NCBI GenBank assembly: GCA_045545295.1
Contig: JAZQAO010000054.1
Span: 20,826-84,825 of the forward strand
Source: Clostridia bacterium
GTDB lineage: Bacteria; Bacillota; Clostridia; UMGS1883
Direction: 5' to 3'
DNA: 64,000 nt
Shown: positions 2,430 to 34,463 of the stretch, piece by piece
How positions within the stretch are numbered: position 1 is the first letter of the stretch
How the letters are laid out: each line of letters begins with the position of its first letter
The notes under the pieces: model-generated
What the model was told of the DNA's origin: nothing
Seen by the model: only the letters and a program-made list of their open reading frames with translations
The model's database searches: none
Position numbers and translations under genes: made by a program

Positions 2430-2431
2430 TT

Positions 2432-4519: not shown

Positions 4520-4544
4520 AAACTATTCCTCCAAATTAATTACT

Positions 4545-4728: not shown

Positions 4729-4837
4729 AAATAAAAACAGAAAACGGAAAACAGAATGAAAAGGTAGCTAAATGCTCTTAAAACCGATGTTTTGTTTTTG
4801 CGATTTTGTACCTCCAAATTCCGTTTTCCGTTTATTT

Positions 4838-10135: not shown

Positions 10136-10150
10136 CCGTGTCACCTCGAA

Positions 10151-12877: not shown

Positions 12878-12888
12878 GTTCTCCTTTC

Positions 12889-14598
12889 TTATCGGCTTAA
12901 AGCGCCGTAGATTAACTTAGCCGCCTGTGCACGTGTAAGCTTACCTGTAGGCTGGAACTGGGTTTCTGTCATACCGTTGATTACGCCTGCAGATGCAAGT
13001 GCATCAACGCTTTCCTTTGCATATTCTGCAATTTCGCCTGAATCGCTGAAGTTCTTTGCCTCACCGTTTTCAAGAGTGATACCCTTAAAATCAAGCACTC
13101 TCTTAAGCATTACTGCCGCATCCTGTCTTGTAATAGGCTGACCTACACCAAAAGTGAAGTTATCCTGACCTTTTACAATTCCTTTAACCTGTGCACTCGC
13201 AACATAAATATTTGCCCAGTGTCCTAAGAGGTCTGTGAAAATAGTAAGTGCTGTTTCATCATACATATCGAAAGCCATTACATACATCTTTACAAATGCT
13301 TCTCTTGTAACGTAGCTGTCAGGATCAAAGGTATTAAGTGCAATACCGTCGATTACACCAAGACTGTGAAGCTCGTTTACAGCCTCAAATGCCCAGTGGT
13401 CTACAGGAACGTCATTAAACATACTTGTTGAAGGAAGTGTAGGAAGAACTTCAAGGCTTTCATTTTTATTAAGAAGGTCTGAATCAACTATAACTTCCTT
13501 ATCGGGATTTTTCGCGGGGCCGCTGAATCCGCCACCGCCGCCACCGCCGCCACCGCCGGAGGGCTTTGAGTTTTCTTCATTATAGGAAACAACATCTTCA
13601 AACGCCTTTACAACTTCACCTGCAAGCACGAAATCCTGACCTACAAAGGCTTTGTTGATTTCACCTGCCCCGTATTTGTCGCAAGCATCTTCGTAATCCT
13701 GAAGAGTAATGCCGAAGTATTCGATGTACTTTTCAACAGTAGGACCGTTCTTTGTAGCATCAAGCTTATTAAGATTAGCTATTGCAATACTCTGGAAAAG
13801 GTCATTCTTTACATCAGTAATTGTTTCGGGAGCCTCGTTCTTTGCGTTAGCATAGAAAAGCTCATAAACTACATCTTTATTATCACTGTAGTCTCTGTCC
13901 TCTTTATCAAGTGTAAGAAGTGTGCTTTCATCCTCGCAAAGTGTCACGCACTCTTCATCGGTTGTTGTAGCGTTGATATCACGGATAAGCTGTACACCCG
14001 AAAGGATGTTTACTACAGTACCCATATCATTACATTCGTTATTGTAATCTGCTTCACGGATGTTAAGGAAAAGGTCACAGATTACATCTGTATTTTCTGC
14101 AAAATCTGTTTTGTCGATTGAAAGCATATCTGCCTTTTCAGAAAGAAGTGTTTCAATTTCTGCACGGTCTGCAGTTTCAATTGCCGGAAGTGTAACCTCT
14201 TCTATATAAGTCTGGCTTTCAAAGTAGATTTCTGTTGTATCCTTTGAAACAGCCGCTTTTGTACCGTTACCGGATGCAGCGATTACAAGGTAACCTGCCG
14301 GGTCATCTTCTGCAAGCTGAATTTCTGTTTCCACAAATCCGCTGCCGTCTGTTTTAACTTCAAGTGCACGTACGAAATCAGCAGGTGAAGATACCGTAGT
14401 TTCTTTTTCGTACATTACTATTGAAATTTTCTGCACATATTTTGCAGGTGTTGTAACCTGTATTGTAACTACAGATGTGTCGTAGTTTACAGATGCAGTT
14501 ACATCAAACTCTGTTTCTGCCGATACACTAAAGCACATAAGTGAAAGTGTCATAGTGCATACAACAATCATACAGAGGATTTTTTTAATATTCTTCAT
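12889..14598 (-). CDS. Secreted protein with poly-Gly linker and three C-terminal SLH domains (S-layer anchored)
   Basis: FNDVPVDHWAFEAVNELHSLGVIDGI...TREAFVKM and two further SLH copies. G10 linker. Start moved to ATG 14598 (AGAGGAG RBS) rather than the ORF-track Met at 14616, which lies inside that RBS. Confidence 0.8.
   Translation of the reverse strand: MKNIKKILCMIVVCTMTLSLMCFSVSAETEFDVTASVNYDTSVVTIQVTTPAKYVQKISIVMYEKETTVSSPADFVRALEVKTDGSGFVETEIQLAEDDPAGYLVIAASGNGTKAAVSKDTTEIYFESQTYIEEVTLPAIETADRAEIETLLSEKADMLSIDKTDFAENTDVICDLFLNIREADYNNECNDMGTVVNILSGVQLIRDINATTTDEECVTLCEDESTLLTLDKEDRDYSDNKDVVYELFYANAKNEAPETITDVKNDLFQSIAIANLNKLDATKNGPTVEKYIEYFGITLQDYEDACDKYGAGEINKAFVGQDFVLAGEVVKAFEDVVSYNEENSKPSGGGGGGGGGGFSGPAKNPDKEVIVDSDLLNKNESLEVLPTLPSTSMFNDVPVDHWAFEAVNELHSLGVIDGIALNTFDPDSYVTREAFVKMYVMAFDMYDETALTIFTDLLGHWANIYVASAQVKGIVKGQDNFTFGVGQPITRQDAAVMLKRVLDFKGITLENGEAKNFSDSGEIAEYAKESVDALASAGVINGMTETQFQPTGKLTRAQAAKLIYGALSR
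13527..13560 (-). repeat. (GGC/GGT)n simple repeat encoding a Gly10 linker
   Basis: gccaccgccgccaccgccgccaccgcc seen directly; translates to GGGGGGGGGG in the SLH protein. Confidence 0.8.
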
Positions 14599-14617
14599 AT
14601 CTGTAACTCCTCTCAAA

Positions 14618-17518
14618 TCACTTAACTTCCTTTACGAATACATCACGGATATACGCCTTTGACTGTACACCGCTTAACTTGAAGTCTGCACCAAGCTGGA
14701 ACATATTTTCAAGATTCATGTTTTTAAGATTAACCTTTACAGTCTTCCACTTACCGGTGTTATTACGCTGTATATATTCGACTCTGGGACGAAGCTTTCC
14801 GATACCTTCATAATAGTAGTCGGGGTGATTTTTCTCACGTTTAGCATAGGTGCTGATATTTTCCCATTCAAAGTAATCAATCTTTATGGGGAAATATGTA
14901 TTATCAAGATAAGTAATCTCGATTTCAACGTCGGTCTGTTCTTCTTCAAGGTAGTCAGGCTTAACCTTTACTTCCATAAAGTTGTTCTTGGGAATTTCAT
15001 AGTATGTACCCTTGTCATCCTTATGCTCGAGCATAAAGTGGTCTTCACCCTCGTAGCTGTATGTAGAACAAGCTTCGTTAAGGTCTATCTGACTGCCGGG
15101 AGTGGGATTTTCTGTAATGTCGCCTACGTAAGCCCAGCCGACTTCAACAGTCTTATAATCTTCACTCCAGAGACCGAAGAACGCAGTCTTTGCATCCCAG
15201 CTGAACTGCGGATGTGAATGTCCGGGGTTATTACCCTTTGTATGGTTTACAATAACTTTTGACCAGCCTGCCTCGGTATCCATAAGTACAAGCTTTGTAA
15301 AACCGTTTGCACTGTCGATACCAACGTCGGAAATAAGCCAGCGGTTGGAGTTAAGTGCAGTTGCACAGTGTGAGTAGTTGTGGTCACCGTTTACAAGGTA
15401 ACGGTCTTTTCCGTCCCAACGTGCAAAATAGATGCCTTCTTCTGCCGGCGTTTCTGTTTCTGCACCCCAGTTATAACGGATTTCATCGTGATGGGAGTCA
15501 CCTCTTACAGTAAGAAGATACTCACCGTCTGCAAGCCAGTATTCGTGAACACCTGTTTCACCTGTTCTTTCTGGTGAATACTTTTTCTGAGGGAAGCCTA
15601 CCCATCTTTCACCTGTGTCAATATCCATAACCCATGTTCTGTCATTTACATGTGCACCCTCGTGACAATAGAACACAAGATTTTTCTTTACGGGATTCTG
15701 ACAAAGATGTCCGGGATAAGTATAATCTGTTACAAAATCCTTTGAAAAATCAGGTATGAAAATATTTTTCCAGATGTTATTTTCGATATCGTACTGATGT
15801 ATTGAACCGCCCTGATCTCTCATTTCCCAATAACGGGCATCACGTACACCAATTGTAAGTGCCGTTTCATAAAAGTCAACCTGAAGCATTACACCTGTTG
15901 AAAGAGATATATCCTGATAAGCATCGGGAAGGTGTACTACAACAGTTTCTTCATAAGTGTCAAGGTTTATCTTGCAGATTCTTGAATATTTGTCAAGATA
16001 CCACAGATTGTTTTTCTTTGTAAGACAGAAGAAATGCTCAATACCGGGTCTACCACTGCACATATACTTAACCATATAGGTTTTCATATTATATTCGTAT
16101 ATGTTGGAATTCTTGTCACGGAAATAGAATCTGGTATCGTCTGTGGATGTCATAGGCATCGTATAGTAGTTTTTGATTGCATTTTCACCAAGAAGGTTGA
16201 TTGTGTAATAAGTTCTTCCTGTTTCGGGGTCATAGTGTTCTTCCGGGGGCATATAGAATTCACCCATCAGAAGCCAGTTGATAAGACTTGAATCGCCCGT
16301 TGCTCTGAAAGTATCAACTGTTACTCTGCCTGAATTGTAAAGGTCTGAAAGATAACACTTTTCTGTCTTTAAATTCTTCAAAGGAAGCATATTGTTTGCA
16401 AATGCAACAAGGTTATCCATAAGAACGGTCTTTGTAGGCTGGAATACCATGTTACCTGAATTGATAAGCTTAAGACCTGCTACAACAGAAAGAGGATTTG
16501 TCTTTAAATCTTCCCCTTCATAGCCCATAAAGTTTGCATACCACTCACAAAGCTCACTCTGCGGTAAAGGCTCCTTCGCACCGAGAGTCCCTGTGGTATT
16601 CTTTACGATACCGAGGCTTTCCGCCATACCGACATAAGGTTTGAAGTCTGCAGATACATCGACGAAGGAACAAGGAAGGTTCTGCTTCTCTGCCTCTTCC
16701 TTAAGACCTGCAAACTGAATCATATACTTAAGTGTTTCTTCTCTTGTAAGCTCTTTTCCGAGAATAGCATCTGCATTGTCTGCATTGTACTCATCGAAAA
16801 GGCCCATTACATTAAGAGAGTTTGCCGACTTCGAGTTAAAGAGGTCAAATGTTTCCTCTCCGGCATTACGGCTGAGGTTTGTAACCTCAATCTTTGAAAA
16901 CAAGTTATAACCGCCTGTTACAATACGCATATCGCCGCCGTATTCCATTGCCTGACGGAAAGATGCGTCAGAAATGTAGAATGTACATTCCCACCACTTT
17001 GCCTTTTCATATCGCTCTTCATCGGTACCACCCTTAGGGTCACCCATTTTAAGAACGGAGATACGACCATAGGTGTCGGTCGTACCGGGAATGGTGTAGT
17101 CAAAATGGATATAACCTGCACCACCGAAGTCGTAATAGTTGAATGTAATTTTGAAAGTTGTATCTTCAGGAGATGCGAAAGACGGGTCAAACTTCAGATA
17201 CATAATGTTCTGATAATAAACCTTTCTTCCGACGATACCCTTAAGCTCAACCTTTTCGTTATATGTAACGTCTTCCAGTACAGTCTTACCGAAACCATCT
17301 TCGAAAGTCATATGATTCTCTTCTGCGGTATCGGTGAATATGATATACGCATTATCCTTATCAACAGGCGTCGTCGCCTTGATTTCAGTCTGGGGCATAA
17401 TTACGGGATTCTGCCTGACTTCAATCTCTAATGCCAAAGCATTGATGCCGCCCATAAGAACAAGCATCGCAAACAGAGTGACTGCGCATACCAAACCTTT
17501 CTTAAATATTTTTTTCAT
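14618..17518 (-). CDS. Secreted surface protein with PL22 oligogalacturonate-lyase-like beta-propeller domain and C-terminal shared module
   Basis: Signal peptide; VFYCHEGAHVNDRTWVMD, VHEYW, NNPGHSHPQF motifs paralogous to the 1765-aa protein; GGGGGA RBS. Confidence 0.8.
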   Translation of the reverse strand: MKKIFKKGLVCAVTLFAMLVLMGGINALALEIEVRQNPVIMPQTEIKATTPVDKDNAYIIFTDTAEENHMTFEDGFGKTVLEDVTYNEKVELKGIVGRKVYYQNIMYLKFDPSFASPEDTTFKITFNYYDFGGAGYIHFDYTIPGTTDTYGRISVLKMGDPKGGTDEERYEKAKWWECTFYISDASFRQAMEYGGDMRIVTGGYNLFSKIEVTNLSRNAGEETFDLFNSKSANSLNVMGLFDEYNADNADAILGKELTREETLKYMIQFAGLKEEAEKQNLPCSFVDVSADFKPYVGMAESLGIVKNTTGTLGAKEPLPQSELCEWYANFMGYEGEDLKTNPLSVVAGLKLINSGNMVFQPTKTVLMDNLVAFANNMLPLKNLKTEKCYLSDLYNSGRVTVDTFRATGDSSLINWLLMGEFYMPPEEHYDPETGRTYYTINLLGENAIKNYYTMPMTSTDDTRFYFRDKNSNIYEYNMKTYMVKYMCSGRPGIEHFFCLTKKNNLWYLDKYSRICKINLDTYEETVVVHLPDAYQDISLSTGVMLQVDFYETALTIGVRDARYWEMRDQGGSIHQYDIENNIWKNIFIPDFSKDFVTDYTYPGHLCQNPVKKNLVFYCHEGAHVNDRTWVMDIDTGERWVGFPQKKYSPERTGETGVHEYWLADGEYLLTVRGDSHHDEIRYNWGAETETPAEEGIYFARWDGKDRYLVNGDHNYSHCATALNSNRWLISDVGIDSANGFTKLVLMDTEAGWSKVIVNHTKGNNPGHSHPQFSWDAKTAFFGLWSEDYKTVEVGWAYVGDITENPTPGSQIDLNEACSTYSYEGEDHFMLEHKDDKGTYYEIPKNNFMEVKVKPDYLEEEQTDVEIEITYLDNTYFPIKIDYFEWENISTYAKREKNHPDYYYEGIGKLRPRVEYIQRNNTGKWKTVKVNLKNMNLENMFQLGADFKLSGVQSKAYIRDVFVKEVK

Positions 17519-17532
17519 ATTTATCCCCCTTG

Positions 17533-19161
17533 TTATCTTGCGTCATATACGCGGATTGACTTAACACGGAAGTTTTCTCCTGTTGTTGTATTAATAGTCA
17601 AATCGTCTGTAGACACGGGAAGGTTATTACCAATAGCGAATTTTGCATTATCAATCTCTACAACTGCTTTTTTCCATTCGCCACTGTTTGTAAGTGTAAC
17701 AAGCTTGCAATCGTAACCTGACGCAGTCTTGTACATAATTGTAGCCTCACCCACACCCTCGTCAAGATACTCAATTTCAACATTTACTCTTCCGACACCG
17801 TTAAGGCGTGTGTCTGTTACGTCAAAATCAAGTGATTCGGAAGGATCAATTTCGATACAGTTAACACCGTCAACCTCTGTTGCTTCTGCCTTATCCATAT
17901 AGAAGATAACGTCACGGATTTCGGGAACGTCCTTTACACGAAGGCCTGCGGGGTCACCATCGTAGTCGCTTCTTTTTGCAACTGCAATGTCAGATACGTG
18001 AAGACCTGATGTTCCCTGCCAGAAACGGAAGTTACCCTGACCTGTACCATTATCCATGTAGTAGTGGAAATTAGCATTATTTACCCTAACGCTTGCAGTC
18101 TTCCACATCTGTGTTCCTGTTTTTTTCAAACTTACTGTAGTAGATTTAAGTGTGGTAGCTGTTGAAGCGTTATTTGTATATGTAAGGTTGATTTCCTGTG
18201 TATCATCGTCAAAATAAGTAAATTCCATAATTATGTCCTTATCATCAGCACTGATACGAGAAGGATCCACCTTAGCAGTAAATCTGCCTGACATCTTATC
18301 AGCACGGTTAGGTGCTGTAACTGCCGCACGGCACACTCTTCCGCCTGCTTCTGCTACTTCAGTCCAGCCGAGAGTTCCTCCATTTGCAGGAGTGGGACCT
18401 GTTTTATCATCACGTTTTACATTAACCCAAAGCCACAAACCATCTTCTTCAATTTCTGTTGTGTTTGTGGGGTCATCAGTTGTCATCTTGATATTCATAA
18501 CGTTTGCACTCTTTACATCTAATTCAGAAACTGCAGAAACAAGACCGCTTCCATCAACTGCTTCTACCTCGTAGTGATGCATAGAGTCCTTATCAAGATA
18601 CTTTTCCGTGAATGTTGTTTCATCAACAGCTTCTGCAATAAGTATACCGTCGCTGTAAACGTTGTAGTATGCTACATCGTCAAAATCGTCATACGCCTCA
18701 TCCCATGAAAGTTCAATTGCTGAAGGCATATTGTTGCTGTCATAAAGATTCTGGGGCTTTGCAGGCTCCATATTGTCAAGAGGTGTACATAATGTTACAC
18801 CGTCCCAAAGGAACACCTTGTATTCTTCTGTTGAAAGGCTGTTAACATTAACACCTGCTTTAAGAGTATCACTTACAAGCTCACCTGAAAGTGTTACTGA
18901 CTGTGAATCAGTTGCCTTAATCTTACCTGTTTCCTTATCGCAGAGCATAACGATAAGCATTACAGTCTGCGGTGAGGTACCGTTAAGATTTGCTGTTACC
19001 TGTGTGTACACAAGACCTGTCTGAACTTTGGGAATTTCACTCTCTCCTGCGTCCAGATACTTAAAATCTGTGAACTCCACTTTTGCGGCAGATGCCATTG
19101 CTATTGGTGCAAAGGAAAGCACCATTGCAAGAACTACCACTGTTGCCAATAGTTTTTTCAT
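17533..19161 (-). CDS. Secreted protein: Ig-like/FN3 domains plus two tandem copies of the shared C-terminal module
   Basis: Signal peptide MKKLLATVVVLAMVLSFAPIAMASA; FN3-like segment; two module copies (MEFTYFDDDTQEINLTY...WKTASVRV and VEIEYLDEGVGEATIMY...WKKAVVEI); GGAGGAG RBS. Confidence 0.75.
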   Translation of the reverse strand: MKKLLATVVVLAMVLSFAPIAMASAAKVEFTDFKYLDAGESEIPKVQTGLVYTQVTANLNGTSPQTVMLIVMLCDKETGKIKATDSQSVTLSGELVSDTLKAGVNVNSLSTEEYKVFLWDGVTLCTPLDNMEPAKPQNLYDSNNMPSAIELSWDEAYDDFDDVAYYNVYSDGILIAEAVDETTFTEKYLDKDSMHHYEVEAVDGSGLVSAVSELDVKSANVMNIKMTTDDPTNTTEIEEDGLWLWVNVKRDDKTGPTPANGGTLGWTEVAEAGGRVCRAAVTAPNRADKMSGRFTAKVDPSRISADDKDIIMEFTYFDDDTQEINLTYTNNASTATTLKSTTVSLKKTGTQMWKTASVRVNNANFHYYMDNGTGQGNFRFWQGTSGLHVSDIAVAKRSDYDGDPAGLRVKDVPEIRDVIFYMDKAEATEVDGVNCIEIDPSESLDFDVTDTRLNGVGRVNVEIEYLDEGVGEATIMYKTASGYDCKLVTLTNSGEWKKAVVEIDNAKFAIGNNLPVSTDDLTINTTTGENFRVKSIRVYDAR

Positions 19162-19497: not shown

Positions 19498-20703
19498 ATG
19501 CACGAACTTACGATTATAGACGACGACAGACAATTTTTAAACAATTTTTCTGTTTTCTTAAAAAAGAATATCAGTTCACAAATTAAATCCACTCTAATTA
19601 TGGAAACGGATTCGGCACTGATGCACCTTCGTATCCATTATCCCGATGTTATTATAATAAATGCAAGGTTTAACGGAGAAAGCGGACTTGACATAATCCG
19701 AAGCTGCAAAAAAACAAATAATACTTCAAAATTCATAGTCATAAGCGATGAAAAAGACTTTGAAGTGTTGCAGGAAGCCTTACGCCTTGGTGTATACGAT
19801 TTTTTCTTAAAACCTGTTGATTATTCCGTTCTGCTTGAATCTGCAAATAAGATTTTTTCAACTTTAGATAAAGAAACACCCAAGCATTCCGAAAATGACG
19901 TAAGACCTGTGAAAGACAGAATGTTTTCAGACCTTCTTGCAGGACGCATAAAAAATCCTGTTGACCTATCTCTCCGTCTTGCGGAATCTGAACTGAAATC
20001 CGACTACATAAATCGTCCGTGTGCCCTTGTAAACATACATATAAACAGCTTTTCAAGATGGCTTACAATGTGTTGGGATGAAGGTGCAGAAAGATTTTAC
20101 CGTGAAGTGAGCAATGCACTTGCAGGTATCAGCAAAAAGGCTGAGTTTGTTATTGCAAGAACGTTTTACAGCAACATTGAGTTACTTTGCATAAACAATT
20201 CCCAAATGTCTACCGAGGAACTTCTTGAAGAATGTATTCCGTTATTTTCAAAAATCATTCTTGACAAATTGGGAGTTTATTCAGAAATTCATGTAACAAA
20301 AATTTTCTCTTCCCTCTCAGAAATTATGAAATACAATCTGCAGGAACCTATCAATAATGATAACAAGTCAGAAGAAGTTATTGAAAAAGCCCTAAAATAT
20401 ATGCGGCACAACTATTTCCGTGAGTTTACACTTGATGATGTTGCAGATTATGTTAAACTTTCAAAAGAATATTTCTGCTCATACTACAAGAAAAAAACGG
20501 GGGAAAACTTTCTCGACTCACTTACCCGTCATCGCATAGAAATGTCTAAAAAGCTTCTCGCAAATACTACACTGACAATCAATCAGGTAGCGGAAAGTGT
20601 TGGCTATCGAAGTGCATCATATTATCATAAAACCTTCAAACTCTCATGCGGAATGTCACCATCTGATTTTCGTAAAAAAGCTACTGCTGCAAAAGCAGAA
20701 TAA
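19498..20703 (+). CDS. Response-regulator-like AraC-family transcription factor with Asp-less (Asn) receiver domain
   Basis: N-terminal CheY-like fold aligns (DD at 9-10, Ser ~87, Lys in FFLKP) but phospho-acceptor position is Asn55 (VIIINARFNGESG); C-terminal AraC HTH (LTINQVAESVGYRSASYYHKTFK). Confidence 0.8.
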   Translation: MHELTIIDDDRQFLNNFSVFLKKNISSQIKSTLIMETDSALMHLRIHYPDVIIINARFNGESGLDIIRSCKKTNNTSKFIVISDEKDFEVLQEALRLGVYDFFLKPVDYSVLLESANKIFSTLDKETPKHSENDVRPVKDRMFSDLLAGRIKNPVDLSLRLAESELKSDYINRPCALVNIHINSFSRWLTMCWDEGAERFYREVSNALAGISKKAEFVIARTFYSNIELLCINNSQMSTEELLEECIPLFSKIILDKLGVYSEIHVTKIFSSLSEIMKYNLQEPINNDNKSEEVIEKALKYMRHNYFREFTLDDVADYVKLSKEYFCSYYKKKTGENFLDSLTRHRIEMSKKLLANTTLTINQVAESVGYRSASYYHKTFKLSCGMSPSDFRKKATAAKAE

Positions 20704-22757: not shown

Positions 22758-24761
22758 TCATCTGTTTGCGGTGATTTTATAATACAGAGTCTTAAGTTGT
22801 GATCTTGTAAGTGCATCCTTTAATTGAGTATCAGGCTCATAGTCAAGATAAACTATACCATAAGTGTATTCGCTCATACGCTCCGCAAGCGAGGAAATTT
22901 CGGAATACAGTTTTTCTTCATCATCACGTTTTTCATAAAGACAGTTGTAATAATCAAGGCAAAGCACCATCATCCTGAAAACATCAACACCGTACAAAAT
23001 TCCGCGGATATCTTCGTTGATTTTTGAAAGCAGTGCCTCTCCCTCGGGCTTTTTTCTCATATCCTGAGGGTTAAGGGCAGTGCTTTCGTCAGTAAAAAGT
23101 TCGGGAGAAAGAGATTCTGTTTCTTCCGTTCTTATTTTCCGAAGTTCCCTCAAAGCTTTTTCAAGCTTTTTTACAGTTTCATAACCGCTTGCTACGGCAT
23201 TTTCTCCCAGGTGGGATTCGTTATAAAAAGGCTTTGCGGGGATTTTTCCGTCCCACTCGGAAAGGTGTGTGAGAATACTTGTGTCAAACCAGTTACGCCA
23301 TGATCCGCAATAGCTCACGGCGTCCTCGATAAGTCGGTAAGCCTCTTTTGCACGCTCTGCATATTTTCCGTACATATCGTCAAAATACTTGCCGATAAGC
23401 TTGTCAGTATCGCAGTTTCTGTCACGGCTGATATTAGCAAGCACATATTGATTAAGACTTCTCACTCCCCAGTCGAGGACGGGGGTGTGCATATACTCAA
23501 TTTCCGTCACACCGCAGTCTATGTAATACTTAACGTCGTTTATTATCCTCTCCGTGAAAAGAAGCGGCAAATCCTCATATTTTGAAACGTTATAATACTC
23601 ATTCATCGCAAGCATCATACCTGTTTTTGTCCAGTCATTGAGAGTACGTTTATATATTCTGTTTTTGCCGCAAGTATCGTCGCTTAAATCGTGGTGGTAG
23701 CACCTTAAAATCGGGCAAAAAAGCGGATAGTCTCCCGCTTTTATAAGATTCTCGGGAACGGGATTCTCAGGTGCTTCAAGGGTATCTGTACCCTCATAAG
23801 CATCGAATGAAAGTCTTATATTATGGTCAATAATACCATCACGATACGCCTGGTCAATTCTTTTTCTTATATGTGAAAGATAATGCAGAGTTCTGTCCGT
23901 TCCGTTTCCGAGGGCACTGCATTTTTCACAATTACAACTTGCCCCCCAGGTATCAAAGCCTGCAAGTTCAAACACCGATTGGTCTTTCCAGTCGGTCTTT
24001 ATTTTATCAATGACAGTTTCCGCAAGCTTGTCAAGTAATTCTTCATTGGTAACACAGAACTGAACGTTAATGGCATTTTTCTCATTTATTTCGCCTTCAC
24101 GCTTACCGTACCAGTCTTTGTGCACTTCAATATAATATCCGCCGTTCTCATCAACGTTTTTCGGATTAAGAATTTTTGTAAAAACGTGGCCACCTGTTTT
24201 AAGAGTGAAGCACAGCTTCTGCTGAAGTTTTTTCGTATTCGGAAAACAAGCGTGTATGTTCATTCTGTTTCTCGCCATCCATACGGTAAGGCTCATTGAT
24301 TCTTTGAGAAGTCCTTCAAAATGAAACCCTCTGCCGTCAGGCATATCGTATTTATAATTTTTACATTCAACGGCAATAAGTTTCTTCAATTCAGGGACAA
24401 ATTCCTCTGTAGGAGAATACCAGCGAATTCCCTGTGCTTCAAGGAATTCATACACTGCATAAAGCAGTCCTTTTCTAGAATTGCCTTCCAGAACAGCATC
24501 ACTGCCGTCAGTGTATATTCTGAATTCTTCTCCGTCTTTGTCAAGACACTTGAGAATAATGTTTCTATCGCCTTTTTCGTGAGATACAGAGGTCTTTATT
24601 CCGCATTTATTAAGATAAACACAAAGTTCCTCTGCCGCATAAGAAACCGTACATCTTACGGCAGATTCCTTGTCGTTTTCAAAATCAATTTTATTTTCAT
24701 CATGTGCCCAAAGTTCATAATACTTTTCCGCATCGGGATATGGAAGCACTATTGTCAACAA
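22758..24761 (-). CDS. Large hypothetical protein, possibly glycoside-hydrolase-like (DUF4838-like impression); TTG start
   Basis: 667-aa ORF, no recognisable catalytic motif; LYAVYEFLEAQGIRWYSP N-terminal pattern; Cys cluster CNCEKCSALGNG; start codon is TTG at 24761-24759. Confidence 0.55.
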   Translation of the reverse strand: MLTIVLPYPDAEKYYELWAHDENKIDFENDKESAVRCTVSYAAEELCVYLNKCGIKTSVSHEKGDRNIILKCLDKDGEEFRIYTDGSDAVLEGNSRKGLLYAVYEFLEAQGIRWYSPTEEFVPELKKLIAVECKNYKYDMPDGRGFHFEGLLKESMSLTVWMARNRMNIHACFPNTKKLQQKLCFTLKTGGHVFTKILNPKNVDENGGYYIEVHKDWYGKREGEINEKNAINVQFCVTNEELLDKLAETVIDKIKTDWKDQSVFELAGFDTWGASCNCEKCSALGNGTDRTLHYLSHIRKRIDQAYRDGIIDHNIRLSFDAYEGTDTLEAPENPVPENLIKAGDYPLFCPILRCYHHDLSDDTCGKNRIYKRTLNDWTKTGMMLAMNEYYNVSKYEDLPLLFTERIINDVKYYIDCGVTEIEYMHTPVLDWGVRSLNQYVLANISRDRNCDTDKLIGKYFDDMYGKYAERAKEAYRLIEDAVSYCGSWRNWFDTSILTHLSEWDGKIPAKPFYNESHLGENAVASGYETVKKLEKALRELRKIRTEETESLSPELFTDESTALNPQDMRKKPEGEALLSKINEDIRGILYGVDVFRMMVLCLDYYNCLYEKRDDEEKLYSEISSLAERMSEYTYGIVYLDYEPDTQLKDALTRSQLKTLYYKITANR

Positions 24762-24791: not shown

Positions 24792-25742
24792 TTATAACAG
24801 TTTGCTCCATTTATTTTTCGCACTTGAAGCCGCCTGAATTGCCGCAAAAATGCGGAATTTATTTCTTTCTGTTGTACTGCGTCCGGTAACAATAAGAAGT
24901 CCCTGTGCTTTATCCTGAACGGCATTTTCAAGAGTAAATCTTAAATTATGTTCAAGGTTAAAGGTTGAATCTATGGAGCCGGCAGGAATAATATCGTATC
25001 CTGCCTCGGTAAGTTTTCTGTAGCTTTCACGCTTTTTTATATCGTAAGGGTCATCGGGAAGCGGTGCCGAAACATCCGGGAACATATGACCGAAATACCA
25101 CGGACTTACCACAACATCCTTTCCGATGTTTTTTTCAAAAGTTTCAAAGTCTTTCCAAAAAGCATCCGCCCACATCCATGGTCTTACCCCTTTATCTCTT
25201 ACGCACTGAAGCATAAACTTAACATCGTGAAGCAGTAGTTCGTGCTGTCGGTAGCACGCATAGGTGAGGTTACGCTGACTGTCCTCCCCTTCTTCATTCA
25301 TACCGATGTGGAAAAGTTCGGGAGTTTCAAATATATCGCACACCTCATAAATAAGGTCTTTAACTACTTCATAATAATCAGGGGTGGAAAGCATTCTGCC
25401 GTAAATACCGAGCCAAGCATCGTGTGCCGCGGAAAAATTCAGTTTCGGATAGACCTTGAAGCCCATAGAACGAAGACGTCTTACTTCCTCCGTCATATAT
25501 TCAGGAGTCCATCCCCCTTCAATCCACAGTTCGGGATGGGATTTATAGCAAATTGCATCACCGATATTTATAACAAGAGCTTCTACGCCATTTTCCTTTG
25601 CAAAGTCCACAACCTGATCCCAGGCTGCCTTCTCGGTAATTATTCTTGTATTGAACACATTACCTGCATAATCGGCACGGGTGGTTGAATCTATGCCGAA
25701 ATTATCTCCAAGAGAGAGCATTAAATAGAGTGTGTCTTTCAT
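24792..25742 (-). CDS. TIM-barrel-like putative carbohydrate-active hydrolase, paralog 4 (divergent C-terminus)
   Basis: Start at internal Met (MKDTLYLMLSLGDNFGIDS), aligned to paralog N-termini; GGGAGG RBS at 25752-25757; motifs YKSHPE, NFSAAHDAWLGIYGRMLST. Confidence 0.8.
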   Translation of the reverse strand: MKDTLYLMLSLGDNFGIDSTTRADYAGNVFNTRIITEKAAWDQVVDFAKENGVEALVINIGDAICYKSHPELWIEGGWTPEYMTEEVRRLRSMGFKVYPKLNFSAAHDAWLGIYGRMLSTPDYYEVVKDLIYEVCDIFETPELFHIGMNEEGEDSQRNLTYACYRQHELLLHDVKFMLQCVRDKGVRPWMWADAFWKDFETFEKNIGKDVVVSPWYFGHMFPDVSAPLPDDPYDIKKRESYRKLTEAGYDIIPAGSIDSTFNLEHNLRFTLENAVQDKAQGLLIVTGRSTTERNKFRIFAAIQAASSAKNKWSKLL

Positions 25743-25743
25743 A

Positions 25744-26706
25744 TTATTTACCTCCCAAAAGCTTTTCCCTTGCGTACTTTGCCTGGTATATGGCATCCAT
25801 ATACCAATACTTGCTGTCATCCATAGGCGCCGCCCAGCTTCCGCAGATAATCATACCGCGAATTTTGTCCTGATTAAGGTTTTCAAGAGCGTAGCGGATT
25901 GTATGCTCAAAATTATGAGTGTTTACATTTGCTCCGCCCTGAAGCATAATATCAAATCCGTTTTCAGTGAGAAGCTTGAAGCTTTTGTAGCGGTTTGTGC
26001 TCCATTCGTCAGTCGGAAGTGGATTTTGTGCATCACCGTAAAAACTGCCGTAAAGCCAGTTACACACAAGGACATCCTTTTTGACATTCTTTATAAACTC
26101 TTTGGGATATGACCAGCAATAGTCACCGCCAATGGCAGGTCTTACGCCTTTTTCTCGGATGCAGTTACACAGGTATTCCACATCGTGCCACACAAGATCA
26201 AACTGACGATAGCAGGCAAAATCGTACCGCTGCTGATTTGTCCAGTTTTCCTCATCAAGGACAAGTGAAAAGAATTCGGGGGTGTCAAAAATGTCGCAAA
26301 CTTCGTGAATAAGCTCCCTCGCCACCTCATAATATCGTTGTGTTGAAACCATTCTGGAATATTCCTCAAGCCACGCATCGTGACCTGCAGAAAAGTTAAG
26401 TCGGGGATACAGTTTTATCCCCTTTTCGTCACGAAGACGCTTTACCTCTGACCGCATAAATTCAGGTGTCCACGCCCCCTCAACGGCAATTTCGGGGTGG
26501 GAATCAAACCTTATACCGTTTGCAATATCAAGAAGAATACTGTCGCAGCCGTTTTCAGCCGCACAATCAACTATTTCGTTCCATGCCTTTACATCTGCCC
26601 TCAGTTTTTTATAATAAATCTCTCCCTGACAGTCAGGTCTTGTGGGAGAATCGTTCCAGCAGTTGTCCGCAAGACAAACAAGCAAACACCATTTTTCAGC
26701 AATCAT
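25744..26706 (-). CDS. TIM-barrel-like putative carbohydrate-active hydrolase, paralog 5
   Basis: Start at Met 26706 (MIAEKWCLLVCLADNCWNDS) with GGAGG RBS; the ORF-track 370-aa extension lacks RBS and family support. Confidence 0.8.
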   Translation of the reverse strand: MIAEKWCLLVCLADNCWNDSPTRPDCQGEIYYKKLRADVKAWNEIVDCAAENGCDSILLDIANGIRFDSHPEIAVEGAWTPEFMRSEVKRLRDEKGIKLYPRLNFSAGHDAWLEEYSRMVSTQRYYEVARELIHEVCDIFDTPEFFSLVLDEENWTNQQRYDFACYRQFDLVWHDVEYLCNCIREKGVRPAIGGDYCWSYPKEFIKNVKKDVLVCNWLYGSFYGDAQNPLPTDEWSTNRYKSFKLLTENGFDIMLQGGANVNTHNFEHTIRYALENLNQDKIRGMIICGSWAAPMDDSKYWYMDAIYQAKYAREKLLGGK

Positions 26707-26830
26707 AGCTTTTCCTCCATAAAAAGATTGAAAAATTTCTTTTATAATCATTTTACCACGATAAATTTTCCTTGTAAATTGCAAAAATAAGAAAAGCACA
26801 TTGCAAAAAGTCCACTGAATTCTATCTCTA

Positions 26831-26923
26831 AAAAAGAAGCGTGCCGCTTCACCCACGTCGCACCCTCACAGGAGTGCAAACAAAGTTTCCTGCGTCATAA
26901 TTTGACGCAAATTCCTATACGGT
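26831..26923 (+). repeat. Single copy of the modular interspersed repeat (core subtype C)
   Basis: aaaaaagaagcgtgccgcttcacccacgtcgca...ttgacgcaaattcctatacggt. Confidence 0.85.
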
Positions 26924-27517: not shown

Positions 27518-27799
27518 TATATAAATGCTCCTTTTGGTTTGATTTACATTTCTATTGTGTGCAACCGTGGAATTTTTATGTAAGGAAAAAGGTGGGATTT
27601 GTACAATTGACAAAACAACCAAACTGTAATTCATTATTGAATTAGTACATTGTACACAAAAGCTTATTTTTTACAAATTTTAGAACATATTGACATATTT
27701 CACCAACACAGTATATTAAATATATCAAACAACACCCAACAACAAAATTTTTCTCTATATTTATTCCACAATAAATCAAACCAAATAACAGCTGACAAA

Positions 27800-28924
27800 T
27801 CACATAGGTAATCTGTCAATTATGTCTTTTGCCTGAGGATGTCCGTTTTTTGCTGCGGCTTTCAGCAATTCTACAGCCTCAAAGAAATTTTGCTCTACTC
27901 CGTCACCATTCATCAAAAGAACCGCAAGATTATATTGGGCATACATATCATTCTGTTCTGCCGAAAGACGGAAAAGCCTTGCCGCTTCTGTATGGTCAGG
28001 TGCTATTCCATATCCGTTAAAATAGCATAATCCCAAATTGTGCTGTGCCTTTGCATTTCCCTGCTCCGCAGACTTTTTATACCAATACACAGCCTGCTTA
28101 AAATCTTGTGTTACACCATCTCCACGCTCATAGCAAACGCCAAGATTATACTGTGCATCGTCAATTCCCATTTTGGCAAGCTCTGTATACATTTTTACTT
28201 CGTCTGACATTTGAACATCATCAGCCCCTTCGTTCTGATGAATATCAATTATTTCGTTATCCGAACTTACTGTAACATAGATTCCATCAGGAATATCTGA
28301 AAGTTCACATTCTCTTGCAATCTGAAAAAATTCCTTTGTTTTTTCATAGCATAAATCATAAATAAAGTCAAATTCGTCCTTATCCGGATCACTTTTTGCA
28401 GCTTGCAAAATTAAACCCATCTTGTCATCCAAAGAAAAATGCTGCAAGCTGTTTTGATTTGCCCTTTTCAGAAAATTTTGCAAATATTTTGGAAGTTTGA
28501 CATTTCGTGAGATTATATAATCACTGTTGTGAGTATCTGAAAAGATGAAGATTATTTCGTCAACCGGAGCTTCCGCATCGTTATGAAGCTTACTGAAATT
28601 ATGAAGAGTTGTTATTACATCTCCCCAATTCCCACCGATTTTAATACTGAACTGAACGCATTGACAGGGATGTATAGCCAATTCTATTTCTCCTTGTTCA
28701 AAAAGATCCATTTCGTCTTCGGTTATATCCGCCCATCTGGTTACAATTATAAGCTTATTTCCGAAAAAATATGCATTTGTTCCATCCGGAACAAGCATCG
28801 GATTCATACCGCAAAAATCAGCCAGAATATATACCCCGTCCGGTTTTGATATTTTAAGGCAGTTTCCTCTTTTTGGCATTTCTTCGGTTTTAACAGTTAC
28901 ATCTCCATACTTTTGACAGAACAT
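27800..28924 (-). CDS. Sel1-repeat (TPR-like) protein with uncharacterised N-terminal domain
   Basis: C-terminal Sel1 repeats (AQYNLGVCYERGDGVTQDFKQAVYWYKKSAEQGNAKAQHNLGLCYFNGYGI...). Confidence 0.7.
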   Translation of the reverse strand: MFCQKYGDVTVKTEEMPKRGNCLKISKPDGVYILADFCGMNPMLVPDGTNAYFFGNKLIIVTRWADITEDEMDLFEQGEIELAIHPCQCVQFSIKIGGNWGDVITTLHNFSKLHNDAEAPVDEIIFIFSDTHNSDYIISRNVKLPKYLQNFLKRANQNSLQHFSLDDKMGLILQAAKSDPDKDEFDFIYDLCYEKTKEFFQIARECELSDIPDGIYVTVSSDNEIIDIHQNEGADDVQMSDEVKMYTELAKMGIDDAQYNLGVCYERGDGVTQDFKQAVYWYKKSAEQGNAKAQHNLGLCYFNGYGIAPDHTEAARLFRLSAEQNDMYAQYNLAVLLMNGDGVEQNFFEAVELLKAAAKNGHPQAKDIIDRLPM

Positions 28925-28941
28925 ATCATTTTTCCTCCTGA

Positions 28942-31401
28942 TTAAGATTTATATAAAGTTACATTTCCGTTAAAGAAGTAATCATACTTACTTTTAAAAG
29001 CATTAAGCTGCATTGTAAGCTCATTCGCCTCCTGAATATTTCCGACACTTTTATGTGCAGCAATAAGCGTTGTATAGCTCTCAGCTACCAGCAGTACATG
29101 TGCATTTTTATAAAAAGCATTTAAAACAAGATTGTGTCTTTTTTCAAAACATTCCAACGCTTCATCAAATTCCCATTGTTTTTTAAGCATTTCTCCCTTT
29201 GTTTTCAAAGCTTCAGCCATTTCAAGTTTATAAATCGACAATGGGGTTTCCATTATAATTGCACTGTTAATCTCAAGCCCCTTATCAAGTAACGAATATG
29301 CTTTTTCCGTGAGTTTTAAATCCGTATATATTTCTGAGGCCATATAGTAACATTTATAAAGTTGCTGTTTTAACGGGATTGTATGAATATCCTCAGAAAT
29401 TTCACTATACAACCGAAGTGCGGTCTTTAAATATTCAACAGTATCTTCTTCGTTTTTCAGTCTGTGCCGTACACGGGCAAGATTCAGATAGCTTTCTGCA
29501 ACAATCATGCGAATTTCAACAGTTTTGCTTCTGTCAATTAACTTCAGTGCAACATCATGAGCCTTTGAAAAAGCTAATTCTGCAGCGTTAAGGTGGTTTT
29601 CAACGTTTATTCCGATATGCTGCTCACCATCGTTCTTAAAGGTATTATAGGCAATAATATTTGTGCTTGAATCATTATAGTATTTATTTATTGCCTCTGA
29701 AAGATTTGCTGCAGCACCTATGAAAACAAAAGCCTGTTCCTCCATATCTAACCGATTGTAGTATTCTCCTATACTGCTGAGGTTGAACAAGACTTTTTTA
29801 AGCGTTTGCAGTGAGTTTGAAGGCACACCTGAACCCCTGTATTCAAGAAGCTTTTCTTTAAGCTCTTTAAGATTCACTTTTATGGTCGTTTTAAGCCCGA
29901 TTATGTTATCGCTCTCATACTGACATTTTGCAAGTAATATATAAGCATAAATAAGGTCTACCACAGAGTTTTCAACAGTATCTGACATATATATTTCTCT
30001 TCGGATTCCGATAGCTTTTTCTATGTAACTATAGCAATTTTCACTGTAATTTCCTGTTTTAATAAGAAGAAGCGCTGCCGATTCATAAGCCTCCGCAATA
30101 TGAATTTTCGCAAAATTTTCGTTTACAAACACTGATGCAGACATAAATCTGACTATTTCCATAAAAGACGCAGCAGCCGCATCTGTATTTTTGCCGCAGA
30201 CATAAATATCAGCCAATTCTTTGTATGCTGCAATAACATTTTCTGCATTTTCCTTAGTTGAAGAATTCTCAAAGTCGAATTTTCTTTGGTCTATATATTT
30301 TTTTTGCCATAAAGCCGCATTTTCTGTATCAATTGCACAACCGTCACCGTACTTATACATTGAAACCAAAGCGGGTATTGCATCTGATACCCCTTCCATA
30401 GCTGCGCTGCTTATCATTTTCATTGCTATGTCAGCGTTCTTTTCTACATATATTCCTTTAAGAAAAGCCAAGCCGATAAAGAAGTCCCGTTCGGGAGTTT
30501 TCTCGCTGATAACAATTCCATTTTCTGCAAGTAGCTTTTTTATAATATCTTTTATACGATCAGTTTCCGAAGACGATATTATTTCCGGAAGTGCAGGATA
30601 GTTTGACTTAACCTCATCTGCATTGGTCTTCACTGCCTCTATCGGAACAATCGTTTTATGCAAAGACTTTGCAATGGGATATTCTACAATTTTGATATAG
30701 TTTTCCTCTTCCAGTATGCTGGGGGTTACCATAAGAATAAAAATTGCACTATTCTGAAGTTCCGATTTTATACTGTCATTAAAATCTTCTCCGGGAACCA
30801 AAAACTCGTCATACCAGATTGCAATATTTTTCAGTTCATCGCTTGAATGAATGATATCAAACAGCTTTTGGGTATACTTCCTGTCTTTTTTTCTGTAACT
30901 GAGGAATATCGTGGCATCGAAAGACTTACGAAGTTTACCAAAGTCATACGCAAGCGAAAGTGCCTGTGTTAAAAAGAGGCGGATTTTTTCCAAATATGGG
31001 ATTGCAGTAAAATCAACATTTTCAATGCAAGCGTTTATACACTGTATATTTGCAAATTTTTCGTTAAAAATTGCTTCAAGACCGTTTTCAACCATAATCG
31101 GAAGAACCGGGATTTTAGCTTCGATTGCTGCATCAAATCTCCGCCTGTCAAAACCTGAATCAAACAGGACGCTTGAAGAAACTATCAGCACATAAAGGTT
31201 TACTTTTGAAACGTCAAAATCATAATCCGTTTTATAAAGCTCCTTGTTCTCTTTGTCATCATAAAAAATTGTACACTTGCAAATGTCAAAAATATCATTC
31301 TTGATTTTAAGGAAATGGTCTGAATCTTTTTCATAGAAATCACAAAACAATTTATAATGAGACTGTGACATATCCTGAACATTGCTTAAATACTTTATCA
31401 T
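28942..31401 (-). CDS. TIR-domain protein with Sel1/TPR-repeat C-terminal region
   Basis: TIR-like segment IFLSYRKKDRKYTQKLFDIIHSS...AIFILMVTPSILEEENYIKIVEYPIA; preceding degenerate TIR-like segment; Sel1/TPR helices downstream; locally AT-rich. Confidence 0.7.
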   Translation of the reverse strand: MIKYLSNVQDMSQSHYKLFCDFYEKDSDHFLKIKNDIFDICKCTIFYDDKENKELYKTDYDFDVSKVNLYVLIVSSSVLFDSGFDRRRFDAAIEAKIPVLPIMVENGLEAIFNEKFANIQCINACIENVDFTAIPYLEKIRLFLTQALSLAYDFGKLRKSFDATIFLSYRKKDRKYTQKLFDIIHSSDELKNIAIWYDEFLVPGEDFNDSIKSELQNSAIFILMVTPSILEEENYIKIVEYPIAKSLHKTIVPIEAVKTNADEVKSNYPALPEIISSSETDRIKDIIKKLLAENGIVISEKTPERDFFIGLAFLKGIYVEKNADIAMKMISSAAMEGVSDAIPALVSMYKYGDGCAIDTENAALWQKKYIDQRKFDFENSSTKENAENVIAAYKELADIYVCGKNTDAAAASFMEIVRFMSASVFVNENFAKIHIAEAYESAALLLIKTGNYSENCYSYIEKAIGIRREIYMSDTVENSVVDLIYAYILLAKCQYESDNIIGLKTTIKVNLKELKEKLLEYRGSGVPSNSLQTLKKVLFNLSSIGEYYNRLDMEEQAFVFIGAAANLSEAINKYYNDSSTNIIAYNTFKNDGEQHIGINVENHLNAAELAFSKAHDVALKLIDRSKTVEIRMIVAESYLNLARVRHRLKNEEDTVEYLKTALRLYSEISEDIHTIPLKQQLYKCYYMASEIYTDLKLTEKAYSLLDKGLEINSAIIMETPLSIYKLEMAEALKTKGEMLKKQWEFDEALECFEKRHNLVLNAFYKNAHVLLVAESYTTLIAAHKSVGNIQEANELTMQLNAFKSKYDYFFNGNVTLYKS

Positions 31402-31496
31402 TTATAAACTCCCATCACATTTCGCACTCTTAAAAGCATAACAAAACACGCACAAAAGGCCAATAAACTCCGTATATTTCAGCCATATAGCAAAAC

Positions 31497-31540
31497 AACA
31501 ATGCCTTTTGAGACTGCAACAGTTGCAATTCCAAAAGGCA
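31497..31540 (-). terminator. Compound hairpin downstream of the GT2 gene
   Basis: aatgccttttg ...loop... caaaaggcatt 11-bp stem read directly; weak T-tract. Confidence 0.35.
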
Positions 31541-31545
31541 TTCTT

Positions 31546-33989: not shown

Positions 33990-34463
33990 TTACGGATAGT
34001 CAAAACCACCGTTATCAATGTTGCATCTTTTTAATCTGCCTGCTCCCTTTTTTAATCCCTTTACAAGACCATACTTCTCTATGGATAATCTCATATATTC
34101 AGAGCAGGAAGGTTCAAACCTGCATTTATTCCTTATGTGCGCCGGAGCGTATCTTTGATATATTTGTATCATTAAAACGGCTGTCTTTTTCAGATATATC
34201 ACCATAAAAATAAAAAAGACCAGACAAGCAGTCACACTACTGACAATCAAAGATCGGCTTACAAAGTAAGAAGCAAAAAAACACACGCCCAAAAGCACTA
34301 CATTCCCCACCAGAATCAGCAGAATTTTAATCCAGTTAATTTTAGGTCTGACTAGTATTCTTTTGTAGTTGCACGACGTAGGATTGTTTTCATCACTGAA
34401 TAATTGTTGTGCCAAAACATTCATATTTCCAAAATCTTCTTCAGAAAATTCAATACTTTTCAC
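33990..34463 (-). CDS. YidD-family (membrane protein insertion efficiency factor-like) protein with ~90-aa N-terminal 2-TM extension; GTG start
   Basis: IYQRYAPAHIRNKCRFEPSCSEYMRLSIEKYGLVKGLKKGAGRLKRCNIDNGGFDYP matches YidD CRFxPxCS...RC.P..GG.D.P; GGAGG RBS 8 nt before GTG. Confidence 0.65.
   Translation of the reverse strand: MKSIEFSEEDFGNMNVLAQQLFSDENNPTSCNYKRILVRPKINWIKILLILVGNVVLLGVCFFASYFVSRSLIVSSVTACLVFFIFMVIYLKKTAVLMIQIYQRYAPAHIRNKCRFEPSCSEYMRLSIEKYGLVKGLKKGAGRLKRCNIDNGGFDYP

Follow-up and report, generated by a model that had tools for sequence, protein, structure and literature searches.

Enzymes with TIR domains that turn nicotinamide adenine dinucleotide (NAD+) into immune signals are common to bacteria, plants and animals, and each new bacterial configuration has tended to bring a further signal, sensor or effector to light. 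TIR-II includes a single protein with TIR and TPR parts that defends E. coli against phages and requires its TIR active site; the two parts can be held by one protein or split between two, further genes accompany them in some cases, and the system has been reported in phages (PMC11350192). Thoeris types I-XI pair a TIR signal generator with a separate effector (bioRxiv 10.64898/2025.12.03.692087). BcTir/BcTpr is the type VIII Thoeris system (TIR plus ThsI, a CMP hydrolase-TPR protein). Its inactive TIR has a lysine in place of the catalytic glutamate, its catalytic domain is a 189 amino acid MilB-like N-glycosidase within a 415 amino acid TPR protein, and the system works as a complex. “Group 6” bacterial TIR proteins, which are mainly actinobacterial, have an N-terminal TIR and multiple TPRs in more than 700 amino acids (PMC7075850). 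DSR2 and DSR1 are reported to combine a SIR2 NADase at the N terminus with a long helical-repeat arm at the C terminus, to which a phage protein binds. Here we report a two-gene operon that looks like an undescribed variant of TIR-based and TIR plus TPR conflict systems. It is encoded on a 64,000 nucleotide stretch of a Clostridia bacterium (contig JAZQAO010000054.1, positions 20,826 to 84,825), the whole of which we refer to as the window; coordinates without a locus name are positions in it. The architecture of this gene pair is not described in the literature that we found.

Both genes, and all features assigned to the pair below, are on the minus strand. Gene 1 (28942-31401), defined by its open reading frame (ORF), a Pfam TIR_2 match and its homologues, encodes an 819 amino acid protein with tandem TIR domains followed by Sel1 and TPR repeats. 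Gene 2 (27800-28924) is directly downstream and encodes a 374 amino acid partner that comprises an orphan N-terminal domain and Sel1 repeats. A preliminary description of the region, made from the letters alone, had placed the two ORFs at exactly these coordinates and lengths. Its assignment of domains, namely a TIR_2-type domain with a degenerate TIR-like segment ahead of it and a Sel1/TPR solenoid behind it in gene 1, and a partner that closes with Sel1 repeats and whose N-domain is uncharacterised, is borne out by the profile and structure comparisons given in the following paragraphs. Direct reading of the sequences revealed no signal peptide or transmembrane (TM) segment in either protein, and we therefore read both as cytoplasmic.

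Pfam TIR_2 (PF13676) matches residues 165-254 of gene 1 with a score of 41.7 bits, above the gathering cutoff of 28. We modelled residues 1-300 with AlphaFold2 (AF2; predicted local distance difference test, pLDDT, 87) and obtained two successive beta-alpha units at residues 16-116 and 163-267, the former as a beta-alpha-beta-alpha unit. The model has the flavodoxin-like TIR fold, with a Foldseek probability of 1.0 to at least 15 solved TIR domains, including those of AbTir, BtTir, PdTIR, BtpA, SPARTA TIR-APAZ, SARM1 and TLR1. The Pfam and Foldseek results and profile matches to PDB chains place the catalytic-type TIR domain at residues ~160-267 (30601-30924). The segment ahead of it, residues ~12-152 (30946-31368), is identified as an internal TIR duplicate because hhalign aligned it to residues 158-296 with 96.4% probability (E=1e-9, 91 columns), in agreement with the AF2 model. 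In the same alignment this N-terminal copy has a variable residue at the position of the catalytic glutamate and lacks the PGE loop, and it has no Pfam match.

The second TIR domain carries the features expected of an active site. The motif that runs from IFLSYRKKD to NYIKIVEYPIA is present, and its conserved glutamate is E240 (codon 30682-30684). Among 87 non-identical family members, which diverge to about 35% identity, E240 occurs in 86 and the remaining member has a gap. The BB-loop motif WYDEFLVPGE (residues 196-205; 30787-30816) is kept as well: W196, Y197 and D198 are present in all 87 members, P203 and G204 in 85, and E199 and E205 in 84. Both the glutamate and the BB loop are thus intact in a domain modelled with the TIR fold, and their near-invariance across members so divergent argues for a maintained enzyme. 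A phmmer search of PDB with the full-length protein returned Sel1/TPR matches only; with a profile of the TIR domain alone, the matches were AbTir (4.5e-5), BtTir (1.6e-4), C. elegans TIR-1 (3e-4) and PdTIR (1.7e-3). The closest solved sequence relatives, AbTir, BtTir and TIR-1, are chains deposited as NAD+ hydrolases. The residues WYDEF are identical in the alignments to AbTir and BtTir, and E240 is aligned identically to a glutamate of TIR-1 (SARM1 family), which we take to be the catalytic one and the equivalent of human SARM1 E642. The TIR of gene 1 is, by these sequence comparisons, a probable NAD-cleaving enzyme.

Only a 38 amino acid linker (residues 263-300) separates the TIR from Sel1-like repeats at residues ~300-378 (30268-30504). 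The family profile matches Sel1 proteins in PDB over positions 304-379 (E=3.6e-43 to 1e-18), and phmmer matches include 6onw, 6ok3 and 6ur7. The remainder of the protein, residues 379-819 (28945-30267), is a TPR-type alpha-solenoid and the presumed sensor arm; the profile matches TPR structures (kinesin-light-chain, LGN and consensus TPR) at ~1e-11 over positions ~530-800. The Pfam matches to TPR_12, TPR_1, TPR_2, TPR_8 and Sel1 in gene 1 are each individually below threshold. No NTPase domain was found in gene 1 in Pfam, NCBIfam or PADLOC, and an Avs/STAND protein with a TIR effector was rejected, as no NTPase lies between TIR and TPR. Within the clade of paired genes defined below, mean pairwise identity falls from 66% in the TIR to 48% in the degenerate TIR, 45% in the Sel1 repeats and 33% in the TPR region, the pattern expected of a conserved effector with a diversifying sensor. 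We also noted an 824 amino acid “Tetratricopeptide repeat protein” in PDB (9m0n_A / 9umd), nearly the same size as gene 1, of which residues 28-68 align weakly to the BB-loop region of the TIR profile (E=0.22). It is not among the 60 best matches to the full-length profile, and we found no paper on 9m0n_A.

The partner ends in Sel1 repeats (residues ~246-370; 27815-28189), which Pfam recognises in three stretches with 116.4 bits against a threshold of 30.7. Its first 240 residues have no match in Pfam, NCBIfam, PADLOC or PHROG, and the N-domain has no sequence match in PDB. The AF2 model of this domain (residues 1-232; 28229-28924) is confident (pLDDT 91.7; predicted template modelling score 0.88) and comprises a beta-rich core (residues 3-143), three helices and then a hairpin. 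The fold has no match in PDB or BFVD, where the best E-values are 0.09 and 0.14. Across 37 sequences, 20 positions are invariant, many of them polar, and they include K18, C22, D47, N56, R63, Q91, N115, D130, R140, D183 and D186. A papain-like Cys-His pair (C22, H85) is unsupported, since the model puts C22 inside a beta-strand. The domain is rare, with 66 clusters among 5.8 billion, about 50 of the clusters being Sel1-bearing partners; an exhaustive HMMER scan of 1.84 billion representatives found it in 34. It is always N-terminal, either followed by Sel1 repeats (~370 amino acids) or stand-alone (233-287 amino acids). Stand-alone homologues of 233 amino acids with 34-38% identity (L013:7001-8216, L014:5614-6829, L015:7001-7705 and L016:4836-5537) are surrounded by genes for glycoside hydrolases and central metabolism, and a 147 amino acid ORF with no family match follows the homologue in L013 and L014.

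The pair has the anatomy of a self-contained, tight two-gene operon. The stop codon of gene 1 (28942-28944) and the start of gene 2 at 28924 are separated by a 17 nt spacer, which holds an AGGAGG ribosome binding site (RBS; 28934-28939), and a GGGAG RBS (31409-31413) lies 7 nt ahead of the ATG of gene 1. Gene 1 begins ~90 nt downstream of a strong hairpin (AATGCCTTTTG ... CAAAAGGCATT, 31500-31542) with a T-rich tail (31491-31542 overall), which follows the upstream GT2 glycosyltransferase gene. We infer that this hairpin insulates the operon from upstream transcription. It was found by direct reading and was missed by a simple terminator scan. A consensus scan placed a weak terminator-like hairpin across the partner stop codon (27792-27819; 12 pairs, 3 of them G-C). 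As the terminator and promoter scans gave site counts no higher than those of shuffled sequences, this second hairpin is weak evidence and the operon boundaries rest on direct sequence reading. The genes around the pair encode SpoVT, the GT2 glycosyltransferase, a PMT_2-type membrane glycosyltransferase, a YidD-domain protein, a DUF4177 protein, a PHP phosphoesterase, a DUF4838 protein and GH20-like proteins.

Homologues of gene 1 form more than 1,050 clusters. All of those listed carry TIR_2 and nearly all also carry Sel1/TPR repeats, and in many the match is confined to the N-terminal 45-60% of the query. Those with a named source are from metagenome-assembled genomes (MAGs) of Clostridia, Oscillospiraceae, Lachnospiraceae or Ruminococcaceae. 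The partner gene is directly downstream of the TIR-TPR gene in seven independent locus types (the window, L001, L002, L003, L004-6, L011 and L019), and the pair is kept down to 30% identity in the TIR-TPR protein and 47% in the partner. Identity to gene 1 is 58% in L001 (an Acutalibacteraceae MAG), 62% in L002 (a sheep-colon Clostridia MAG), 35% in L003 and 30% in L004-6. Conservation is consistently higher in the partner than in the TIR-TPR protein (for instance 74-75% versus 62%, and 47% versus 30%). The L011 partner has no Sel1 repeats and the L019 partner is 282 amino acids long. Contigs of identical length recur in the TIR-TPR and partner homologue lists and point to at least 12 more pairs. 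The regions on either side of the pair are unlike in every locus type, with two exceptions: the PHP phosphoesterase flank of the window is also present in L001, the 58%-identical ortholog locus, and the L011 pair, like that of the window, is near spoVT.

Among 80 metagenome loci of the wider family, which are 35-42% identical over the tandem-TIR module, the partner domain occurs in only one (L019). In a neighbor-joining tree of the N-terminal module, all the partner-bearing members, including that of the window, fall in one clade. The pair thus marks one clade within a large family of otherwise solo Clostridia TIR-TPR genes. In two of the paired loci a same-strand gene without a Pfam match lies just upstream of the TIR-TPR gene, encoding 649 amino acids in L003 (L003:2803-4752, 9 nt gap) and 459 amino acids in L019 (L019:8429-9805, 108 nt gap). 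These genes may be a third component in the L003 and L019 subclades; the window has no counterpart.

Most members of the wider family are solo genes in heterogeneous neighborhoods, where 365 neighbors fall into 279 clusters. The most frequent Pfam match among these neighbors is RyR. The protein concerned (~477-530 amino acids) starts with TM helices and ends in a RyR domain, with a Rossmann-like region between them; the RyR domain matches PDB 6uhi (9e-6) and also the bacterial “putative ryanodine receptor” entries 6uag and 3nrt. The TM-RyR gene recurs next to TIR-TPR genes in at least five locus types and is often operonic. It is upstream of the TIR-TPR gene with a 14 nt overlap in L070 (L070:8416-9951), with a 24 nt gap in L038, L039 and L041 (L038:4526-6118) and with a 105 nt gap in L081 (L081:6646-8079); it is downstream and convergent in L032/L034 (13456-14919), and in the paired-clade locus L003 it lies two genes from the TIR-TPR gene (L003:1237-2670). 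Phage RyR-domain proteins bind or hydrolyze the cyclic ADP-ribose (cADPR) isomers 2′cADPR and 3′cADPR (2026 preprint, PMC13232231). This genomic context suggests that the TIRs of this family may form cADPR-type products, to be read or removed by a second protein. By eye, the C-terminal EHIRW of the TM-RyR protein has the same three-residue H/W spacing as H75 and W78, the residues mutated in phage RyDEP. We found no description in the literature of bacterial TM-RyR proteins in TIR operons.

Set against the described systems, TIR-II is the nearest functional precedent for gene 1. The agreement is one of architecture only, a TIR NADase-type domain and a TPR array in one cytoplasmic protein. In contrast to TIR-II, gene 1 has an extra degenerate TIR in front and Sel1 repeats between TIR and TPR, and the system of the window has no ATPase, is restricted to Clostridia and has a dedicated orphan-domain partner; TIR-II has also been reported in phages, whereas gene 1 has no phage relatives. 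The Group 6 proteins share the overall architecture and size class of gene 1 but differ in their sequence boxes (RDFFVSY and WDAVPG, compared with FLSYRKKD and WYDEFLVPGE), and neither a tandem TIR nor a partner is described for them (PMC7075850). In the literature that we found, the sole mention of tandem TIRs concerns an amoeba protein. AbTir, BtTir, PdTIR and BtpA are the best sequence and structure matches and share the alphaC glutamate region and the WYDEF..G[DE] BB loop, but they are proteins of about 150-300 amino acids (coiled coil plus TIR) without a tandem TIR or solenoid, and identity is 20-24%. The NADase plus solenoid design of DSR2 and DSR1 is functionally analogous, but the fold is SIR2 rather than TIR, with no homology and no partner gene.

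With Thoeris the pair shares its two-gene layout; the gene adjacent to the TIR gene could encode a signal receptor, and sister clades have at their side a membrane RyR-domain protein for which binding of cADPR isomers is plausible. However, the partner matches no PADLOC model, has only Sel1 in Pfam and NCBIfam and contains no recognizable effector domain; gene 1, with 819 amino acids and its own solenoid sensor, is not a small ThsB; and the window has no defense-island context. PADLOC gave a weak partial ThsB match to the TIR and nothing to the partner, in keeping with the preliminary description, which had recognized no named system in the pair. PADLOC-DB dates from 2023 and predates Thoeris types V-XI, which were judged by Pfam domain content only. 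None of the Thoeris effectors (SLOG-SIR2, Macro, caspase-like, SLATT, DUF2270, CMP hydrolase-TPR and others) was found in the partner, and membership in Thoeris was rejected on this ground. BcTir/BcTpr offers a further likeness, a glutamate-less TIR, a TIR-like/MilB-like NAD-cleaving domain and TPRs, which resembles the glutamate-less TIR, active-type TIR and TPRs held by gene 1. The Bc parts are spread over two genes, whereas gene 1 is a TIR_2 domain fused to a solenoid of ~520 amino acids, and gene 2 is unrelated to either Bc protein. Type VIII Thoeris was rejected: no MilB-like domain was found by Pfam, and MilB (4jem) gave only a generic TIR-fold match (E=2.4e-3).

The pair may reasonably be read as a defense or signaling module. 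Our preferred reading, to which we assign a probability of about 45%, is that the operon is a cytoplasmic TIR-based conflict module, most likely anti-phage, with solenoid-sensed, E240-dependent NAD+ cleavage and the partner as receptor or regulator. The fast-evolving Sel1/TPR solenoid of gene 1 would recognize a trigger that is presumably a protein of phage or other foreign origin, and recognition would drive assembly of the TIR domains. The active sites of TIR NADases form at TIR-TIR interfaces, as in the published structures of SARM1, AbTir, SPARTA and plant TNLs. Because the sites are completed in this way, the glutamate-less N-terminal TIR may be a non-catalytic partner face, or an autoinhibitor that masks the catalytic TIR. 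The active TIR, with its WYDEF..PGE loop and E240, would then cleave NAD+ to ADP-ribose or a cADPR isomer, and/or deplete NAD+. The partner would dock on the Sel1/TPR arm of gene 1, most likely via its own Sel1 repeats, and its pocket-like orphan N-domain could be a receptor or regulator of the TIR output, or a co-sensor.

Some members of the wider family lie among phage or defense genes. In L018 (L018:6499-10496, from IMG/VR) a solo TIR-TPR gene lies immediately after a Tn916-type integrase at one end of a prophage, with endolysin and tail genes upstream, and in L017 (L017:126-10802, IMG/VR) a homologue is downstream of McrB/McrC and a 1,325 amino acid M4 peptidase; the layout of L089 is similar to that of L017. 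Several loci (L025, L036 with 684-4139 and 6843-, L057, L062, L071, L074 and L077) have two TIR matches each, apparently tandem TIR-TPR paralogues, which points to local expansion of the gene family, as is seen for diversifying sensors. Among the 148 nearest neighbors, PADLOC matched JetD (5e-105), mad3 in three members (3e-71), DpdF (3e-51), an AriA/PtuA/GajA-type ATPase, AbiLi and ThsB.

Several results count against an anti-phage module. The defense-type matches amount to ~10 of the 148 neighbors (about 7%), a figure that is indicative only because it lacks a matched background, single-HMM matches in PADLOC overcount and only aggregate counts are available; most of the neighbors are housekeeping genes. 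The 55 neighbors in the paired clade, including those in the window, contain no recognized defense system, only a PDC-S29 candidate match, a mad3 match (2e-21) and generic subtilase and radical-SAM matches. Defense-island support is therefore modest for the wider family and absent for the paired clade. The pair itself adjoins spoVT, glycosyltransferase, YidD, PHP phosphoesterase and metabolic genes, its composition is normal and no mobility genes were seen around it. A tblastn search of 50,697 phage records found no relative, and there was one plasmid match, at the level of the TIR domain only. The PADLOC match to the TIR is limited to ThsB1 (5.9e-6) over profile positions 2-72 of 319, with zero matches to the partner, in which no recognizable effector or toxic domain and no TM segment were detected. 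The distant stand-alone homologues of the N-domain (34-38% identity) occur without any TIR neighbor, and so the orphan domain has a life outside the pairing. Finally, the HMMER register of E240 relative to AbTir and PdTIR is off by two residues. The position that this register would select, 238, is fully variable across the family, and given the conservation of E240 we take the latter as the catalytic-equivalent glutamate.

In a rival reading, the pair is a housekeeping or developmental NAD-signaling module of spore-forming Clostridia rather than an immune one: the TIR-TPR protein would make or use up an NAD-derived metabolite upon an endogenous protein cue, with the partner as its adaptor. 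This is the alternative that survives best, and we regard it as unlikely while giving it real weight. Ordinary GC content, both overall and at third codon positions (GC3), and the lack of mobility or defense genes seen nearby are in its favor, as is the position of the pair, which adjoins spoVT in the window and in L011 is close to spoVT, yabP, yabQ, divIC and mfd. The PHP phosphoesterase flank shared with L001, the recurrence of the solo member P0112 in the same context in four metagenome samples and the very large size of the family within one bacterial class point the same way. Against it stand flanks that vary between locus types and the rarity of the paired clade, to which the ~50 Sel1-bearing partner clusters noted above attest. 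Together with the fast-evolving sensor arm and, in the wider family, tandem paralogues, prophage-edge placement and nearby McrBC, Wadjet and MADS genes, these features fit accessory conflict genes better than core regulators.

Rather doubtful, in our judgment, is a more specific proposal in which the pair is an undescribed Thoeris-like system and the orphan beta-rich domain is a new receptor fold for an ADP-ribose-derived signal made by the TIR. The family would then consist of signal generators with interchangeable receivers, including the RyR membrane proteins. If it holds, it would mean native bacterial circuits from TIR via a cADPR isomer to a RyR-domain membrane effector, a prokaryotic counterpart of the animal cADPR/ryanodine-receptor axis. 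Through the TM-RyR link of the sister clades, the long-debated connection between cADPR and RyR would become directly testable in a simple system.

It is improbable that the two genes are a toxin/immunity or toxin-antitoxin-like pair, in which the TIR-TPR protein would be a potentially lethal NADase and the partner its cognate inhibitor, keeping it inactive up to its release. The partner is immediately downstream and appears translationally linked, it is the more conserved of the two proteins (75 versus 62% and 47 versus 30% identity), it co-occurs strictly with the TIR-TPR gene within the clade, and its stand-alone N-domain homologues without a TIR neighbor resemble orphan immunity genes. Against this, 79 of the 80 broader-family loci, with the same near-invariant catalytic residues, have no such partner, so that the enzyme is evidently tolerated without it. 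No secretion or delivery domain was found, and contact between the N-domain of the partner and the TIR is an assumption. Some pairs (L011 and L019) can do without Sel1 repeats in the partner, which fits the toxin/immunity and conflict-module models alike. We also rejected a polymorphic toxin, since a delivery domain is lacking and the two proteins are read as cytoplasmic.

The preliminary description had framed the locus as an AT-rich, horizontally acquired island, with 25-30% GC in sampled stretches. This is not borne out by the composition: GC per kb is 35.6-36.9% in the region, compared with a mean of 39.7% for the window, and only isolated 200 nt windows drop to 27.5%. The TIR-TPR gene (35.2% GC, z=-1.9) does have the lowest GC of the 43 genes examined, and the neighbors of the pair vary between genomes, as would be expected for a recently acquired island with defense cargo. 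However, five other genes in the window are at 35.4-35.8%, within 0.6% of the TIR-TPR gene, and the partner is at 37.7% (z=-0.9). The GC3 values of the TIR-TPR gene and partner (32.0 and 31.5%; z-scores -1.3 and -1.5) are inside the normal spread. The window contains no tRNA, and no integrase or transposase was seen among the genes scanned around the pair, where terminal and flanking repeats were not searched for. Synteny extends to part of the flanks, one of them being shared with the 58%-identical ortholog locus, and no relative was found on phages or plasmids other than the single TIR-level plasmid match. The acquired-island framing is therefore largely refuted and retains only a slight probability.

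A non-enzymatic scaffold, in which the TIRs serve only as protein-protein interaction modules in a TPR/Sel1 assembly, is very improbable: TIR domains can be pure adaptors, as established for animal TLR signaling, and one of the two copies has clearly lost its catalytic residue, but the second keeps E240 and the AbTir-type WYDEF..PGE loop almost invariantly and is the most conserved part of the protein.

With a dead and a live TIR fused in nature, the locus could show in what way the composite active sites of TIRs are pre-organized or kept off. The partner domain is confidently folded and has no known relative, and it would be a new nucleotide-receptor fold if it binds the TIR product. The family as a whole is a large one of gut and rumen Clostridia located outside classical defense islands and has probably been missed by island-based screens; one such survey explicitly discarded stand-alone TIR proteins.

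Elsewhere in the window, positions 2432-19161 hold large minus-strand genes, including a GH88 fusion (695 amino acids), a 1,768 amino acid aBig_2 protein, a 575 amino acid SLH-domain protein and proteins of 908, 966 and 542 amino acids without clear families. This is probably a cell-surface polysaccharide-degrading cluster, and it adjoins an AraC-type response regulator (19498-20703). Two adjacent paralogous genes (24792-25820 and 25744-26856), encoding 342 and 370 amino acids, are visibly similar and have a faint GH20-like signal. They adjoin the DUF4838 protein (22758-24761) and look like an uncharacterised glycan-processing pair; the two ORFs overlap by 77 nt, and one start codon is probably further downstream. 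YidD proteins (membrane-insertion efficiency factors) are usually much shorter than the 157 amino acid ORF at 33990-34463, in which the YidD domain occupies only the C-terminal 64 amino acids and the N-terminal extension has a hydrophobic stretch.

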